From Kayfunavirus MT1B1P3: DNA of 40,159 nt. Made by a program: the position numbers and the translations under genes. Numbering within the stretch: the first letter of the stretch is position 1; each line of letters opens with the position of its first letter. The stretch lies in the sequence record OZ035815.1; one strand, given 5' to 3'. A model generated the notes under the pieces. It worked only from the letters and a program-made list of their open reading frames with translations. It made no database searches and was not told where the DNA came from. Below are positions 845 to 12,645 of the stretch, in pieces.

Positions 845-2604
845 GTAAAGATTTAGTGGCGCGTCAGGCGCTAATGACTGCCCGTATGAAGGCAGACTTC
901 GTGTTCTTCCTGTTCGTCCTGTGGAAAGCCCTGTCACTACCAGTCCCGACTCGCTGTCAGATTGACATGGCGAAGAAACTATCGGCTGGGGACAACAGGC
1001 GTTTCATCCTACAGGCGTTCCGTGGTATCGGGAAGTCATTCATAACGTGCGCATTCGTGGTATGGAAACTGTGGAACAACCCAGACTTGAAGTTCATGAT
1101 TGTGTCGGCCTCAAAGGAACGAGCAGATGCGAACTCCATATTCATCAAGCGAATCATCGACCTCATGCCTCAGCTTCAGGAACTTAAACCTAAGCAGGGG
1201 CAGCGAGATGCTGTTATCAGCTTCGACGTTGGACCAGCCAAGCCAGATCACTCACCTTCGGTTAAGTCCGTTGGTATCACTGGTCAGTTGACTGGTAGTC
1301 GTGCTGACATCCTGATTGCCGATGACGTGGAGGTTCCGAACAACTCAGCGACTCAGGCTGCACGAGACCGTCTGTCAGAGCTTGTGAAAGAGTTCGACGC
1401 TATCCTGAAGCCGGGAGGTACAATCATCTATCTGGGTACTCCTCAGAACGAGATGACCTTGTATCGTGAGCTGGAAGGTCGTGGATATACCACTACCATC
1501 TGGCCCGCTCGCTACCCACGCGATAAGAAGGACTGGCAGTCTTACGGAGACCGTCTGGCTCCTATGCTTCAGGCAGAGCTTGAAGAGGACCCTGAGTCCT
1601 TCTACTGGCGTCCTACCGATGAAGTACGATTCGATGATACGGACCTGAAGGAACGTGAGCTGTCCTATGGTAAAGCTGGCTTCGCTCTACAATTCATGCT
1701 TAACCCTAACCTGAGTGATGCCGAGAAGTACCCTCTGAAGCTCCGTGACCTTATCGTAGCAGACTTGGACCCAGCGTCTAGCCCAATGGTCTACCAATGG
1801 CTTCCTAACCCTCAGAACAAGCGTGAGGACGTTCCTAACGTTGGACTCATGGGTGACTCATACCACACGTATCAGACTGTAGGTTCTGCCTTCAGTTCGT
1901 ACACCCAGAAGATTCTGGTCATTGACCCTAGTGGTCGTGGTAAGGATGAAACAGGTTATGCGGTACTGTACCAGCTAAACGGCTACATCTTCGCTATGGA
2001 AGTTGGCGGTATGCGAGGTGGCTATGAAGACTCTACGCTGGAAGCCTTGGCTAAGATTGGTCGTAAGTGGAAGGTAAACGAATACGTCATTGAGGGTAAC
2101 TTCGGTGATGGTATGTACCTTGAGCTATTCAAGCCTGTAGCTTCCCGTATTCATCCTGCTGCTGTAACTGAAGTGAAGAGTAAGGGTCAGAAGGAACTAC
2201 GCATCTGTGACGTTCTGGAGCCTATCATGGGGTCTCACCGACTTATCGTCAACGCTGCTGCTATCGTCCAAGATTACCAGTCTGCCTCTGATAAGGATGG
2301 TGTTCGTAACCCTATCTATTCTCTCTTCTACCAGATGACACGTATCTCTCGTGAACGTGGAGCATTGGCACACGATGACCGACTTGATGCGCTGGCTATC
2401 GGTGTACAGTTCTTCGTTGAGTCTATGGCGAAGGATGCCAACAAAGGCGAACGTGAAGTCACTGAGGAGTGGCTGGAGGAACAGATGGAGAACCCACGGA
2501 AAGGCTTCGAGTCCATCCACACGGAGTTCTGGGACAATGGGGTCCGGGTAACTCACGATACGGACGACGAGCTGGGACTAGGGTCCTACGTTACGTTCCA
2601 CTAG
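841..2604 (+). CDS. 19: terminase large subunit (T7 gp19-like)
   Basis: 587-aa ORF; strong recalled similarity to T7 gp19 ([83 protein letters not shown]); TTG start at 841 has SD aaggagg 7 nt upstream; alternative ATG at 874. Confidence 0.95.
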
Positions 2605-2700
2605 CTGAATGAATAACTATAGGCGAAAACTGAATTAATAAGCAGTTAGTAACCTATAGTTACTACCAGTCTAACCTACTGTTTTACAAGGAGTTTGGAC

Positions 2701-2721
2701 TTAACTATCACTATAGGGAAG
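2701..2721 (+). promoter_or_regulatory. phage RNAP promoter (phiOR-like, after gene 19)
   Basis: ttaactatcactatagggaag matches the in-window promoter consensus; same position as T7 phiOR. Confidence 0.6.
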
Positions 2722-2901
2722 ACCCCCGGTTACTTATAGTATTACTGTAGTGAATATACATATGCAGACTTTATGCAAGACCTTAGGAGGCAGACTCCGA
2801 GTTCTTACCTAAGGCTTGCACCGATGGAAGGAGGGTGATATTAATCATAATCCCTCCAATACAGATAGTCACCGACCATAGATACAGGAGGTATGTAGCA
2901 T

Positions 2902-3060
2902 ATGGCAAAGACCAAAGCTGTACTTAAAGCTCTGGCGACCAATCGAGCTACATACAGGTTTCTTGCTGCTGTTCTACTTGCTGCTGGCGTTACTGCTGGA
3001 AGTCAGTGGGTCGGGTGGGTCGAGACTCTCGTATGTTCTCTGGTGTCTCAGTGTAATTAA
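2902..3060 (+). CDS. 19.5: small protein gp19.5-like
   Basis: 52-aa ORF translated by hand (MAKTKAVLKALATNRATYRFLAAVLLAAGVTAGSQWVGWVETLVCSLVSQCN); SD ggagg upstream; position and TYRFL motif resemble T7 gp19.5; below the ORF-track size cutoff. Confidence 0.55.
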   Translation: MAKTKAVLKALATNRATYRFLAAVLLAAGVTAGSQWVGWVETLVCSLVSQCN

Positions 3061-3093
3061 CGCAATCATGGTAACGATTCATGAGCGGAAGAC

Positions 3094-3136
3094 CTAAGGT
3101 CAGTACGTGGATAAAGACCCACTCTACTGACCTTAG
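3094..3136. repeat. perfect 12-bp inverted repeat (ctaaggtcagta / tactgaccttag) with 19-nt loop
   Basis: direct reading of sequence; lies between gene 19.5 and the inferred genome right end. Confidence 0.6.
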
Positions 3137-3299
3137 CTACTGTAGTCAAGGACTTTAGGTAACACCTTAAGAGAAGCTCACTTAGGGTCATCCTACTTAT
3201 TGGTCTATCCTAGTGTCGCCTGACCTACGGTCCTTGACCTACAGTGGCTGTGGCCTACAGTAGTGACGATGAGTTTTGGACCAAAAGTTTGAGACCACA

Positions 3300-3535
3300 T
3301 CTCACAGTTCAAGAACCTCAAGTCTCCCCATAGGCCCTCTTTAAGTCCAGACCAAAGGCCCTACCCGTTACTACTCCTTGCAGTCACAGCCAGTCTGTCA
3401 TAAGGTTGGACCGATGGTCAGGACTTCAGGTCAACGATAGGTCTAGGCTATGGCTTATGGAAGGACGATAGGTAGAGGCTATAGGTCTTCTTTGAGTCTC
3501 TATCTGTATAGTGTTATAGTATAACATTACGTCCT
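3300..3535. other. inferred physical genome left end and collapsed terminal repeat
   Basis: tctcacagttcaagaacctcaagtctccccatagg at 3300 resembles the recalled T7 left-end sequence (TCTCACAGTGTACGGACCTAAAGTTCCCCCATAGG); flanked by cctacag-type short repeats on both sides, as in the T7 concatemer junction; exact boundaries not determinable. Confidence 0.4.
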
Positions 3536-3538
3536 ACA

Positions 3539-3662
3539 CCTACAGTCTCACTAACCTACAGTCTCACTAACCTACAGTCTCACTAACCTACAGTCTCACT
3601 AACCTACAGTCTCACTAACCTACAGTCTCACTAACCTACAGTCTCACTAACCTACAGTCTCA
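3539..3662. repeat. tandem array of a 16-bp unit (cctacagtctcactaa), 7 full copies plus one partial
   Basis: counted directly: units at 3539, 3555, 3571, 3587, 3603, 3619, 3635 and a partial at 3651-3662; analogous in position to the T7 short-repeat array next to the terminal repeat. Confidence 0.9.
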
Positions 3663-3812
3663 ACCATAAGACACCAACACCTACAGTCATAGATCTACAG
3701 TTACTAGACACAGAGCTATAGACTTAAGGTCCAAGACATGTTAGTCAAAGACTATATCCTCTTACACCATGAGGCCGACGATAGCTTAATCAGTATTATT
3801 TCAAATTACCTA

Positions 3813-3841
3813 TTGACTATAGGTCAAGGATATGGCCTAAT
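3813..3841 (+). promoter_or_regulatory. candidate host sigma70 early promoter (A1-like)
   Basis: TTGACT -35, 17-bp spacer, cctaat -10; about 510 bp from inferred left end, like T7 A1. Confidence 0.3.
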
Positions 3842-3952
3842 AGCTTCCGTCAACACGACACGGCAACAACCGGATAGTGAAGACGCCGGTCCGGTCCGGT
3901 TAAGTAGTCAGCCTGTAAGACATACGAACAACAGGCAACCGACAGAAAGTAG

Positions 3953-3982
3953 TTGACAAGAAGTATATAATTAAAGTATTAT
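3953..3982 (+). promoter_or_regulatory. candidate host sigma70 early promoter (A2-like)
   Basis: TTGACA -35, 18-bp spacer, TATTAT -10. Confidence 0.4.
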
Positions 3983-4221
3983 GAATCTAAAGCAGTAAGA
4001 CGCCACCACGGAATTGGTAGCAGGTACACTCTAACCGCCTCACTAAGAGTAAATTGAGGGGCCGGGCTTCACCGAGTGAAGAAGGTCTGATTGTCGGATA
4101 CTAAGTTACTACCTATAGCGCGGTAACAGAGAACGTTGGGAACTACGCAATACCCCGAGTTGGACAGCCAACAATGCTCTTTAACAATCTGGATAAACTC
4201 TTAATGTACGCAGATAGCGAC

Positions 4222-4277
4222 TAACTACAGGGCCTTTGAGTCTACATCTGAAGGCCCTGACTGATAGTCACTAACTT
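4222..4277 (+). promoter_or_regulatory. putative early-mRNA processing hairpin (RNase III-like)
   Basis: inverted repeat agggcctt...aaggccct followed by ctgactgatagtcactaac, a motif repeated upstream of the next early genes. Confidence 0.3.
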
Positions 4278-4282
4278 AACGG

Positions 4283-4537
4283 ATGAACACTATGAAACAC
4301 TTAAGCACAATCACTAATCACAATGAAGTATTCGTGAACACTAAAGGTTATGCGTGGATTCAGCTTAAAGAGATGACAGGAGCGCGTCACCGTGTGGTAG
4401 TGCGCAAGGTCTCAAGCAAGCCGTTCAGCAACTACAGCATAGATACTGTGCGCATAGACAACGAGACCTACCTGATAGATTCGCAGATAACCGTGAGTCC
4501 TACAGCGGGCGTCTCAGCTCCTTATTTCGCTAACTGA
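4283..4537 (+). CDS. hypothetical early protein (basic, 84 aa)
   Basis: first ORF after the host-promoter region; no similarity recognised; T7 has no gene before 0.3. Confidence 0.45.
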   Translation: MNTMKHLSTITNHNEVFVNTKGYAWIQLKEMTGARHRVVVRKVSSKPFSNYSIDTVRIDNETYLIDSQITVSPTAGVSAPYFAN

Positions 4538-4610
4538 GAGTGATTAACTACAGGTCGTTAGACTTATAGCGGCCTGACTGATAGTCACTAACAACTGAGA
4601 GGATATAACT

Positions 4611-5141
4611 ATGGAACGTAACGCTAACGCATACTATGAGCTGCTGGCTGCAACCGTTGAGCTGTTCAATGAGCGTATTCAGTGCGACGAAATAGCTGAA
4701 GGCGATGACTACAGTGATGCGCTGCATGAGGTCGTAGACGGTAATGTTCCGCATTATTACCACGAGATTTACACGGTGATGGCTGCTGATGGTATTGACA
4801 ATGAGTTCGAAGACTCTGGGCTGATGCCTGAGACCAAGGACGTAACGCGTATACTACAAGCTCGCATCTATGAGGCACTGTATAACGATGTGTCTAATAG
4901 CTCTGAGGTGGTCTGGTTTGAGGCTGAAGAGGAAGACGAAAAGGCTGAAGAGGAGGACGAAAAGGCTGAATATTGGGTAGTTGACACTAGAACAGGCGAG
5001 ATAATTGAGGCAGCTGTATCACTTTGCGAGGCTATTGCATGTGCAAAAGAACTCTATGAGGAAGGTTTTCACATGCAGGTCGAAGACATCAACGATAACG
5101 TAGTGTTCGATCCTGAGGCTGCTGAGGAGGACTGCGAGTGA
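4611..5141 (+). CDS. 0.3: Ocr-like DNA-mimic anti-restriction protein with C-terminal extension (T7 gp0.3-like)
   Basis: strong recalled similarity to T7 Ocr (VPHYY..I..VMA..GID.EFEDSGLMP.TKDV.RILQARIYE); 176 aa versus about 117 in T7; very acidic; SD gagagga upstream. Confidence 0.85.
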   Translation: MERNANAYYELLAATVELFNERIQCDEIAEGDDYSDALHEVVDGNVPHYYHEIYTVMAADGIDNEFEDSGLMPETKDVTRILQARIYEALYNDVSNSSEVVWFEAEEEDEKAEEEDEKAEYWVVDTRTGEIIEAAVSLCEAIACAKELYEEGFHMQVEDINDNVVFDPEAAEEDCE

Positions 5142-6488: not shown

Positions 6489-9170
6489 ATGAGCGTCATC
6501 TCTATTGATAAACACGACTTCTCTGATGTGTCGAACGCCATTGAGCCGTTTAACCTGCTGGCTGACCACTACGGGAAGGACCTTGCAGTCAAGCAGCTTC
6601 AGCTTGAGCATGAGGCATACACTGAAGGCGAGCGACGTTTCATCAAAAACCTTGAGCGACAGACTGAGCGCGGGGAACTGGCAGACAATCAGGTCGCCAA
6701 GCCTTTGATGCAGACTCTGGTTCCTAAGATTGCGCAAGCCGTCAGGGAGTGGTATGAAGGTCCAGACGGGAAGCTTTCAACCTCTCGTCCTAGCGTAGCG
6801 TTCACCATGTTAAGCACCGAAGAGAAGGCCGTCAAGGACCGCTCTCTGCGTATCCCTTGCGAGTCTGCTGCGGTCATCATACTGAAGGTCATACTCTCCA
6901 AGCTGGTAAAGCCTGAAGGGATACCGATTACACCGATGGCCTCCGCGATAGGTCGCACACTTGAGGACGAAATCCGCTTCGGTCGCATCCGTGACAAAGA
7001 GAAAGAGCACTTCAAGAAGGCGATAGCTGATAACCTGAATAAGCGGGCCGGGGCGTCCTACAAGAAAGCCTACATGCAAGCGGTCGAGACATCCATGCTG
7101 GAGCAAGGCCAACTGGAAGATGCGTGGGGAACTTGGAGTCCTACAGAGGCTGTCCACGTTGGCATCAAGATGCTTGAGATTGTCATCCAGTCAACACAAC
7201 TGGTCGAGCTTAAGCGGTACGGTGCTGGCAATGCAGCGGCTGACGTAGAGATGGTCCACCTGTCAGACTTCTGGGTCAAGAAGATGGCACAACGAGGATT
7301 CAGCCTTGCGGGTATAGCTCCAGTCTACCAGCCTTGCGTCGTTCCACCTAAGCCGTGGACTGGTGTCGTAGGTGGTGGGTACTGGGCCAAAGGTCGCAGA
7401 CCGCTACCCCTGATTCGCTTAGGGTCTAAATCAGCGGTGGCACGTTATGAAGACGTATACATGCCTGAAGTCTATGACGCTGTGAATATCATCCAGAATA
7501 CACCTTGGAAAGTGAACAAGAAGGTACTGGACGTGGTGAACATGGTCGAGAAGTTGAACAACACGCCTATTGATGACATCCCTCAGATGGAGCCACTGAA
7601 GCCTGAAGACTATGCGGGTGAGACTGAGGAGGAACTCAAGGCATGGAAGAAGGCTGCTGCTGGTATCTATCGCCGCGAGAAGGCCCGACAGTCGCGAAGA
7701 TTGTCACTGAGCTTTATCGTTAACCAAGCGAACAAGTTCTCTCAGTTCAAGGCCATCTGGTTCCCGTACAACATGGACTGGCGTGGGCGCGTCTACGCTG
7801 TTCCGATGTTCAACCCTCAGGGTAACGACATGCAGAAAGGTCTCCTTACTCTGGCAGTCGGTAAGCCTATTGGTGCTGACGGTTTCAAATGGCTGAAGGT
7901 CCATGGTGCAAACTGCGCGGGTGTTGATAAAGTCACCTTCGAGGAGCGCATCAAGTGGGTGGAAGACAACCACGACAACATTATGGCTGCTGCTAAGGCA
8001 CCGATGGATAGCATTGAGTGGTGGGGCAAGTTAGACTCTCCGTTCTGCTTCCTTGCGTTCTGCTTCGAGTATGCTGGTGTAATGCACCACGGATTGTCTT
8101 ACTCCTGCTCATTACCGATAGCGTTCGATGGGTCATGCTCAGGGATTCAGCACTTTAGCGCGATGCTTCGTGATCACATAGGTGGACATGCAGTAAACCT
8201 AACGCCTTCCGGTAAGGTCCAAGACATCTACCGAATCGTGTCCGACCGCATTGAGGAAGAGCTTAAAGTCCTGCTGGTTAACGGCACAGACAACGAGATG
8301 GTAACTCACGAGGACAAGAAAACTGGTGAGATTACCGAACGCCTCAAGCTGGGGACACGAGAGCTGGCCCGGCAGTGGCTGACTTACGGCATGTCACGCA
8401 AGGTCACTAAGCGTTCAGTAATGACTCTGGCCTATGGGTCGAAAGAGTACGGCTTCGCAGACCAAGTTTATGAGGACATCGTGATGCCGGCGATTGACTC
8501 AGGGTCTGGCGCTATGTTCACCGAACCAAGCCAAGCGTCCCGCTTCATGGCTAAGATGATTTGGGAAGCTGTGAGCGTGACCGTAGTTGCTGCGGTTGAC
8601 GCGATGAAGTGGCTTCAGGGTGCTGCCAAGCTGCTGGCTGCTGAAGTGAAGGACAAGAAGACTGGAGAAATACTGAAGCCTTGCCTTCCGGTACACTGGG
8701 TAACACCTGATGGTTTCCCGGTCTGGCAGGAATACCGCAAGAAGGATACCACTCGTCTGAATCTGATGTTCTTAGGGTCATTCAACCTTCAGCCTACGGT
8801 CAACAAAGGCACGAAGAAAGAGCTGGACAAGCACAAGCAGGAGTCAGGCATTAGCCCGAACTTCGTCCACTCACAAGATGGTAGCCACCTACGCAAGACT
8901 GTAGTCCACACGCACCGCAAGTATGGCGTGATGTCCTTCGCAGTGATTCACGATAGCTTCGGGACCATCCCGGCTGACGCTGAGTATCTGTTCCGTGGCG
9001 TCCGTGAGACGATGGTCGAGACCTACCGCGATAACGATGTGCTGCTTGACTTCTACGAGCAGTTTGAATACCAGCTTCACGAGAGCCAGCGCGACAAGTT
9101 GCCTGAGCTTCCGAAGAAAGGTAAACTGAATATCGAAGACATCTTGTCTTCAGACTTTGCATTCGCGTAA
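6489..9170 (+). CDS. 1: DNA-directed RNA polymerase, single-subunit (T7 gp1-like)
   Basis: 893-aa ORF; conserved T7 RNAP blocks recognised (TLAYGSKEYGF, PNFVHSQDGSHLRKTVV, VIHDSFGT, final FAFA); size matches T7 RNAP (883 aa). Confidence 0.97.
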   Translation: MSVISIDKHDFSDVSNAIEPFNLLADHYGKDLAVKQLQLEHEAYTEGERRFIKNLERQTERGELADNQVAKPLMQTLVPKIAQAVREWYEGPDGKLSTSRPSVAFTMLSTEEKAVKDRSLRIPCESAAVIILKVILSKLVKPEGIPITPMASAIGRTLEDEIRFGRIRDKEKEHFKKAIADNLNKRAGASYKKAYMQAVETSMLEQGQLEDAWGTWSPTEAVHVGIKMLEIVIQSTQLVELKRYGAGNAAADVEMVHLSDFWVKKMAQRGFSLAGIAPVYQPCVVPPKPWTGVVGGGYWAKGRRPLPLIRLGSKSAVARYEDVYMPEVYDAVNIIQNTPWKVNKKVLDVVNMVEKLNNTPIDDIPQMEPLKPEDYAGETEEELKAWKKAAAGIYRREKARQSRRLSLSFIVNQANKFSQFKAIWFPYNMDWRGRVYAVPMFNPQGNDMQKGLLTLAVGKPIGADGFKWLKVHGANCAGVDKVTFEERIKWVEDNHDNIMAAAKAPMDSIEWWGKLDSPFCFLAFCFEYAGVMHHGLSYSCSLPIAFDGSCSGIQHFSAMLRDHIGGHAVNLTPSGKVQDIYRIVSDRIEEELKVLLVNGTDNEMVTHEDKKTGEITERLKLGTRELARQWLTYGMSRKVTKRSVMTLAYGSKEYGFADQVYEDIVMPAIDSGSGAMFTEPSQASRFMAKMIWEAVSVTVVAAVDAMKWLQGAAKLLAAEVKDKKTGEILKPCLPVHWVTPDGFPVWQEYRKKDTTRLNLMFLGSFNLQPTVNKGTKKELDKHKQESGISPNFVHSQDGSHLRKTVVHTHRKYGVMSFAVIHDSFGTIPADAEYLFRGVRETMVETYRDNDVLLDFYEQFEYQLHESQRDKLPELPKKGKLNIEDILSSDFAFA

Positions 9171-12628: not shown

Positions 12629-12645
12629 ACTATCACTGTAGGACA
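12624..12645 (+). promoter_or_regulatory. phage RNAP promoter variant (phi2.5-like)
   Basis: cctaaactatcactGtaggaca: one substitution at -3; gp2 stop codon is embedded in it. Confidence 0.45.

Follow-up and report, generated by a model that had tools for sequence, protein, structure and literature searches.

The locus considered here lies between the packaging genes and the early region of a phage genome. The window, i.e., the whole stretch of 40,159 bp that was analyzed, was placed by BLAST against phage records in Kayfunavirus, a K1F-like genus (Studiervirinae, Autographiviridae). The genes and main features at and around the locus are as follows.

30-293, + strand: homologue of gene 18, the small terminase (DNA packaging protein A), from a Pfam DNA_Packaging_2 match (E=3e-12) and the annotation of MT496969.1
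841-2604, + strand: homologue of gene 19, the large terminase, 587 aa, from Pfam matches to Terminase-T7_RNaseH-like (E=5e-38) and Terminase_6N; Gp19 in MT496969.1
2701-2722, + strand: phage RNA polymerase promoter-like sequence, TTAACTATCACTATAGGGAAGA, at the position of T7 phiOR, from core matches and position
2902-3060, + strand: homologue of gene 19.5, a 52-aa ORF and the last gene before the right genome end, with the size and position of 19.5 in CR44b and the place of that gene in T7
3300-3501, + strand: direct terminal repeat of 202 bp, most probably a single collapsed copy, from the exact repeat at both ends of MT496969.1 and homologous boundaries in relatives, T7 and T3
3953-3982, + strand: strong sigma-70-like promoter (TTGACA, 18-nt spacer, TATTAT) that matches 11 of 12 consensus positions, in an early A-type cluster
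4611-5141: homologue of ocr (gene 0.3), from Pfam
6489-9170: single-subunit RNA polymerase, from Pfam (RNA_pol/RPOL_N)

The order of these features is that of T7. The repeat is located between genes 19/19.5 on one side and the early host-polymerase promoters and gene 0.3 on the other, and the position equivalent to 3953-3982 is occupied in T7 and T3 by promoters A1-A3. The gene content is also of this type, as both a T7-type terminase (gp18 and gp19) and a single-subunit RNA polymerase are encoded. By analogy, the gene 19 homologue is the predicted enzyme that cuts at the repeat boundaries. The 52-aa homologue of 19.5 had no Pfam match, and an Rfam scan of 2600-4700 (E <= 1) found no RNA families. 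A putative gene of 72 aa (ORF 3738-3956), flanked by the heptamer array that follows the repeat and by the early promoter cluster, also had no Pfam match; it corresponds to a hypothetical protein in relatives (e.g., ASO2B_001).

The promoter-like sequence at 2701-2722 is directed rightward, through gene 19.5 and the repeat. T7 phiOR likewise lies between genes 19 and 19.5, and CR44b has a predicted promoter at the equivalent place. The 15-nt core CTATCACTATAGGGA had 11 matches in the window at <=3 mismatches (1.0 expected), all on the + strand, at 2705, 6403, 9726, 11431, 12630, 14996, 20866, 23708, 24707, 29350 and 36626. No counterpart of T7 phiOL was observed in the interval from the repeat to the early promoters.

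A first-pass annotation, made from the letters of the window alone, had proposed that a physical terminus lies at 3300 and that its terminal repeat had been collapsed by assembly. This proposal is borne out by MT496969.1 (Escherichia phage Mt1B1_P3, 40,313 bp), which by BLAST has 100% identity over the junction region. On direct comparison, rotating the window to open at 3300 reproduces MT496969.1 base for base, apart from one missing 202-bp copy and 48 bp of array copy number. The record is the reverse complement of the window, opens at the physical end and shows two terminal copies of the repeat; the two sequences agree fully in the repeat and in its flanks, and a 16-bp unit right of the repeat is present in 4.8 copies in the record vs 7.8 in the window. 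In the reverse complement of MT496969.1, window 3300-3501 stands at either end as an exact direct repeat of 202 bp, TCTCACAG...GAGTCTCT. The window is the complete, circularly permuted genome of a Kayfunavirus, the same phage as Mt1B1_P3.

The window itself holds one copy of the repeat, as the first-pass annotation had noticed: no 20-mer of 3300-3501 recurs in the whole window, and no overlap was found between the window ends. We consider 3300-3501 to be the single merged copy of a 202-bp direct terminal repeat, in the form of a T7-type concatemer junction, with the genome ends overlapped in assembly (probability of roughly 0.95). The implied virion genome is 40,159 + 202 = 40,361 bp (~40.36 kb). 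The feature, already known from this phage, is a terminal repeat arranged as is standard for the T7 type and displayed in collapsed form, a frequent artefact of assembly.

Short-read assembly of T7-like phages can produce a contig with one repeat copy in its interior (PMC10438801; PMC9503643). A single-copy junction could also have been read from replicative concatemers or joined molecules rather than made by the assembler, as T7-type concatemers have one repeat per junction (PMC10438801) and the window sequence is exactly such a form. We regard this origin as very unlikely, given that phage sequencing is normally done on purified virion DNA and that assemblers are documented to merge or delete such repeats. 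Both routes lead to the same sequence, and the end positions are unaffected by the choice between them.

Merging by the assembler thus remains the preferred origin of the single copy, and the positions of the ends can be read from the boundaries of the repeat. The physical left end is 3300 (TCTCACAG...), and the right end is 3501 (...GAGTCTCT), within approximately +/-4 bp. At the left end, positions 3300-3308 are TCTCACAGT, which agrees with TCTCA(C/T)AGT, as in T7 and all Kayfunavirus relatives; T3 has TCTCATAGT. There are two occurrences of TCTCACAGT in the window, and only the one at 3300 is on the + strand. The longer segment 3300-3334, TCTCACAGTTCAAGAACCTCAAGTCTCCCCATAGG, agrees with T7 (NC_001604) at 28 of the first 35 positions, with TCTCACAGT and CCCCATAGG exact, and so confirms the resemblance to the T7 left end that had been noted in the first reading. 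At the right end, ...GAGTCTCT|ATCTGTAT is divided at 3501/3502, directly before ATCTGT, as in T7, T3 and relatives. Alignment to the ends of T7 and K1F, which the first-pass annotation had named as a check, found a homologous left start and a right boundary before ATCTGT in both. Because the right end is 3501, the interval 3215-3535 that it had marked takes in the motifs of the left flank and the entire repeat and reaches 34 bp into the right flank.

Related genomes point to the same bases. Many Kayfunavirus records have the exact homologue of window 3300 as their first base (BLAST), and ten independent Kayfunavirus genome records, together with T7 and T3, start and stop at homologous bases. 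Repeats at both ends that open at TCTCACAG and close just before ATCTGT (within 4 bp) are present in Milel (202 bp), Emlis (179 bp), Midid (179 bp) and K1F (178 bp), and four IMG/VR isolate genomes have the same ends with repeats of 179, 184, 189 and 190 bp. The 160-bp repeat of T7 has the same left start and also stops just before ATCTGT, and the 231-bp repeat of T3 is TCTCATAG...GTGTCCCT|ATCTGTT. The Penshu1 record carries an annotation of a 179-bp repeat based on PhageTerm, a method that relies on read-start and coverage statistics. The termini of Mt1B1_P3 were also reported as determined with PhageTerm (PMC10470868), and run-off Sanger sequencing of virion DNA from the K1F-like phages SH3-SH5 gave repeats of 183-190 bp (PMC4925675).

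These data bear on whether the phage has fixed ends at all. If it were packaged by a headful mechanism with circular permutation, the likeness to the T7 end would merely be inherited sequence, and the window itself indeed shows no ends; nothing further speaks in favor of this idea. It is exceedingly improbable in view of the T7-type terminase, the PhageTerm termini of the identical phage, the experimentally determined ends of close relatives, and the shared end positions of the ten independent Kayfunavirus records.

A less extreme alternative to the boundaries 3300-3501, although still an unlikely one, accepts ends at this locus and places them at other bases, e.g., with the right end at 3505 or with a shorter, K1F-like repeat. 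The left end is invariant among the records with both-end repeats; the CR44b and KM02 records begin 1-2 bases before TCTCACAG. The right end varies by <=4 bp between records: the exact repeat of a 39,444-bp IMG/VR genome runs 4 bp further, into ATCT (...CTCTATCT), and the K1F record stops 1 bp short. In addition, PhageTerm boundaries may err by a base or two. Against a shift stand the exact 202-bp repeat of the identical record, which ends ...GAGTCTCT, and the stop immediately before ATCTGT in T7, in T3 and in six of the eight Kayfunavirus records with exact both-end repeats. A shorter repeat of the K1F kind is further opposed by the presence in the window of the following segment, which separates 202 from 178 bp.

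3366-3389, + strand: 24-bp segment inside the repeat, CGTTACTACTCCTTGCAGTCACAG, from the junction alignment

In the junction alignment, this segment is present in the window/Mt1B1_P3 and in Milel and is absent in K1F, Emlis and Penshu1. The repeat is 202 bp rather than 178/179 bp long because of this 24-bp indel. An internal direct repeat, ACGATAGGT..AGGCTAT (3434/3465), was considered as the cause of the difference between 202 and 179 bp and was rejected, as the alignment puts the indel at 3366-3389. A second route to repeat-length variation was observed in another genome, IMGVR_UViG_3300045988_000139, in which a 23-bp unit, GGTGGGACTATTGGTCAACGATA, is repeated 3.1 times in tandem inside the terminal repeat, ~98-170 bases after TCTCACAG; here the distance from TCTCACAG to ATCTGT is ~231 bp.

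Three elements adjoin or overlap the two boundaries.

3274-3299, + strand: element conserved immediately before the left-end cut, TTTTGGACCAAAAGTTTGAGACCACA, from comparison with relatives
3501-3508, + strand: TATCTGTA, located where T7 has the concatemer-junction (CJ) class II pause/termination signal (H)ATCTGTT and taken as its homologue from position and conservation
3492-3520, + strand: sigma-70-like site with an extended -10 (TTGAGT, 17-nt spacer, TGtTATAGT), from a consensus scan (9/12, with TG before the -10)

The element at 3274-3299 is identical or differs by 1-2 bases in most relatives examined, and two loci have GTTCGAGAGTCCA. T7 and T3 have ACCA(T/C)AAAAATCTGA(G/A)TG...TA at the same place; the sequence left of the cut is ACCAAAAGTTTGAGACCACA in the window, ACCATAAAAATCTGAGTGACTA in T7 and ACCACAAAAATCTGAATGGGTA in T3. 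We infer that this element is a recognition sequence. It begins with a palindrome, TTTTGGACCAAAA (3274-3286), which was rejected as a hairpin: its predicted ssDNA fold, at -2.0 kcal/mol, is no more stable than those of shuffles (z = -0.26), and two relatives have uncompensated changes in it (TTTTGGACTAAAA and TTTTATACCAAAA). An inverted repeat beyond the right end, TGTTATAgTATAACA (~3512-3526), was rejected as a hairpin as well; at -3.3 kcal/mol (z = -2.05) it exceeds shuffles in stability only weakly, and K1F, like many others, lacks it.

In T7, in T3 and in all Kayfunavirus relatives, the first bases beyond the repeat are ATCTGT, and the form ATCTGTA is invariant in the Kayfunavirus junctions examined; T7 and T3 have TATCTGTT at the same position. 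The CJ class II signal is ATCTGTT preceded by A, C or T on the non-template strand (bioRxiv 10.1101/2021.01.11.426313; 10.64898/2026.02.12.705533), with the cognate phage RNA polymerase pausing or terminating 6-8 nt downstream; any base change in ATCTGTT is reported to abolish termination by T7 RNA polymerase (bioRxiv 10.1101/2021.01.11.426313). The window has T-ATCTGTA, a 6/7 match with A instead of T as the last base, and the site is therefore a positional homologue of the signal and not a strict class II member. Genome-wide, HATCTGTW is not significantly enriched (12 vs 8.4 expected), so that it is position and conservation that argue for pausing at 3501-3508. ATCTGTA may be a genus-specific variant of the pause signal that is read by the K1F-type polymerase, as its invariance would fit. 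The sigma-70-like site at 3492-3520, a consensus match, overlaps both the right end and the CJ-like signal. In this respect it resembles the T7 CJ sequence, which was reported to act as an E. coli promoter (bioRxiv 10.64898/2026.02.12.705533).

Short repeated motifs flank the repeat on both sides.

3224-3260, + strand: left-flank heptamers CCTACGG (3224), CCTACAG (3238) and CCTACAG (3254), which correspond to the CCTAAAG copies on the left of the T7 repeat
3538-3662, + strand: right-flank array of 7.8 perfect copies of the 16-bp unit ACCTACAGTCTCACTA, with CCTACAG in each (TRF score 250, 100% matches)
3680-3701, + strand: further degenerate heptamers, CCTACAG (3680) and TCTACAG (3695), from a motif scan

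The spaced cctacgg/cctacag motifs upstream of the repeat, the cctacag-containing 16-bp array downstream of it, and the parallel with the 7-bp repeats on both sides of the T7 junction had all been pointed out in the first-pass annotation. Each was recovered here at the positions listed, and the CCTAAAG arrays of T7 flank its 160-bp repeat in the same manner. Within 3224-3686, CCTACRG occurs 12 times on the + strand (CCTACGG at 3224 included), three times left of the repeat and nine times right of it; it is absent from the - strand within 3224-3686 and from the repeat, 3300-3501. The 7-bp motif arrays on the two sides of the repeat thus have one orientation. CCTACAG occurs 33 times in the window vs 6.1 +/- 2.4 expected, and none of 100 shuffles reached 33. 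This enrichment, together with the placement of CCTACRG, indicates that the pattern at these coordinates is real and not due to chance. The left-flank heptamers are kept in nearly all relatives. Heptamers are spaced 16 bp apart on both flanks, i.e., the spacing between 3238 and 3254 is the period of the right array, and by analogy this array corresponds to the CCTAAAG array that T7 has on the right.

Outside the junction (outside 3200-3720), 22 copies of CCTACAG are found on both strands, vs ~6 expected. This count ranks 54th of ~15,000 heptamers, the commonest of which has 42 copies, and the excess is probably a coding-sequence bias. One of the outside copies overlaps the promoter-like site at 12630-12644. 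The GC skew is strongly negative over the C-rich top strand of the array and the sequence after it (-0.61 at 3500-3699 and -0.38 at 3600-3799).

The right array varies in copy number among near-identical flanks, with 7.8 copies of ACCTACAGTCTCACTA in the window, 4.8 in MT496969.1, 3.8 in ASO2B and 2.8 in KM02; at this site, the arrays of other Kayfunavirus relatives consist of 2-8 copies of units of 13-16 bp. The difference between the window and MT496969.1 amounts to seven vs four full copies (48 bp), and reflects either a copy-number-variable minisatellite or an assembly miscount. To our knowledge, the role of the flanking heptamer arrays is not established even in T7. A wider proposal would make the array a fast-evolving functional element to which the packaging or DNA-entry machinery binds, so that the number of copies would tune packaging or genome internalisation, and would combine it with ATCTGTA as the genus-specific pause variant; we consider this proposal doubtful.

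A mechanism by which the ends might be formed can be outlined from homology with T7 and T3; the end positions, in turn, are based on record identity, boundaries, synteny and boundary conservation. Replication would produce head-to-tail concatemers with one repeat per junction. The phage RNA polymerase would start at the 2701 promoter, transcribe gene 19.5 and the repeat, and pause at TATCTGTA (3501-3508), and this pause may help recruit the gp18/gp19 terminase and the prohead. The terminase would then cut at 3299/3300 and 3501/3502, and DNA synthesis would duplicate the repeat, leaving a copy at both virion ends. The resulting virion DNA would be linear, running from 3300 round the permuted window and closing with a second copy of 3300-3501. 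The single copy in the window would arise when a short-read assembler overlaps the identical ends or deletes one of them, yielding an arbitrarily opened contig with the repeat in mid-sequence.

The accepted picture of T7-type genome ends is unchanged by this case, and its value is mainly practical: the true virion genome opens at 3300 and has 3300-3501 a second time on the right. The record therefore needs to be re-oriented, and its repeat restored, for annotation, comparative genomics and engineering or rebooting. More generally, the conserved boundary motifs (TCTCACAG on the left and CT|ATCTGT on the right) let the ends of Studiervirinae genomes be placed from sequence alone. In the BLAST match list, several unannotated OZ0358xx Kayfunavirus records have the junction ~2.6-3.7 kb from their start, like the window, which suggests a shared assembly and orientation convention, with the start near gene 18 and the repeat collapsed. 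The BLAST lists also contain Kayfunavirus records very similar to coliphages that were deposited as 'Acinetobacter phage vB_Aba_01KA', 'Enterococcus phage EFA-1' and 'Providencia phage EPr2'. The first of these has a length difference of 1 bp from an E. coli phage record, with equal scores. Some of the host labels among these three may be wrong.

The T7 junction was reconstructed and then aligned with the window and its relatives. T7 has its repeat at the same site, between gene 19.5 and the early promoters, and shares with the window the first nine bases, a right end that abuts ATCTGT, heptamer arrays on the top strand to either side and a phiOR-type promoter upstream. Four blocks are conserved: the element left of the cut, the left end (with TCTCACAGT, ACCT(C/A)AAGT and CCCCATAGG), the right boundary CT|ATCTGT, and the flank heptamer arrays. 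The two junctions are otherwise diverged, with identity at 143 of 301 aligned positions. The repeat is 202 bp in the window vs 160 bp in T7, the pause-signal homologue is ATCTGTA rather than ATCTGTT, and the heptamer is CCTACAG rather than CCTAAAG. T7 has CCTAAAG at -106 and -77 on the left, at 175-332 on the right and in three copies inside its repeat, whereas the window has a perfect 16-bp tandem array and no exact copies inside the repeat.

Among the other known systems, K1F (NC_007456), the type Kayfunavirus with a 178/179-bp repeat, has an 85-bp left flank that is identical to that of the window apart from one base, and shares the first 60 bases of the repeat and the right boundary ...GAGTCTC(T)|ATCTGTAT. 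It is without the 24-bp segment at 3366-3389, and its terminal repeat is followed on the right by a 29-bp x 2 repeat of the CCATAAG type, not a 16-bp CCTACAG array. T3 (NC_003298), with a 231-bp repeat, has the left end TCTCATAGTTCAAGAACC..., the right end ...CCCT|ATCTGTT, and heptamers on both flanks. It differs from the window in its genus, Teetrevirus, in the greater length of its repeat, and in its heptamer, CCTAAAG, some copies of which lie inside the repeat.
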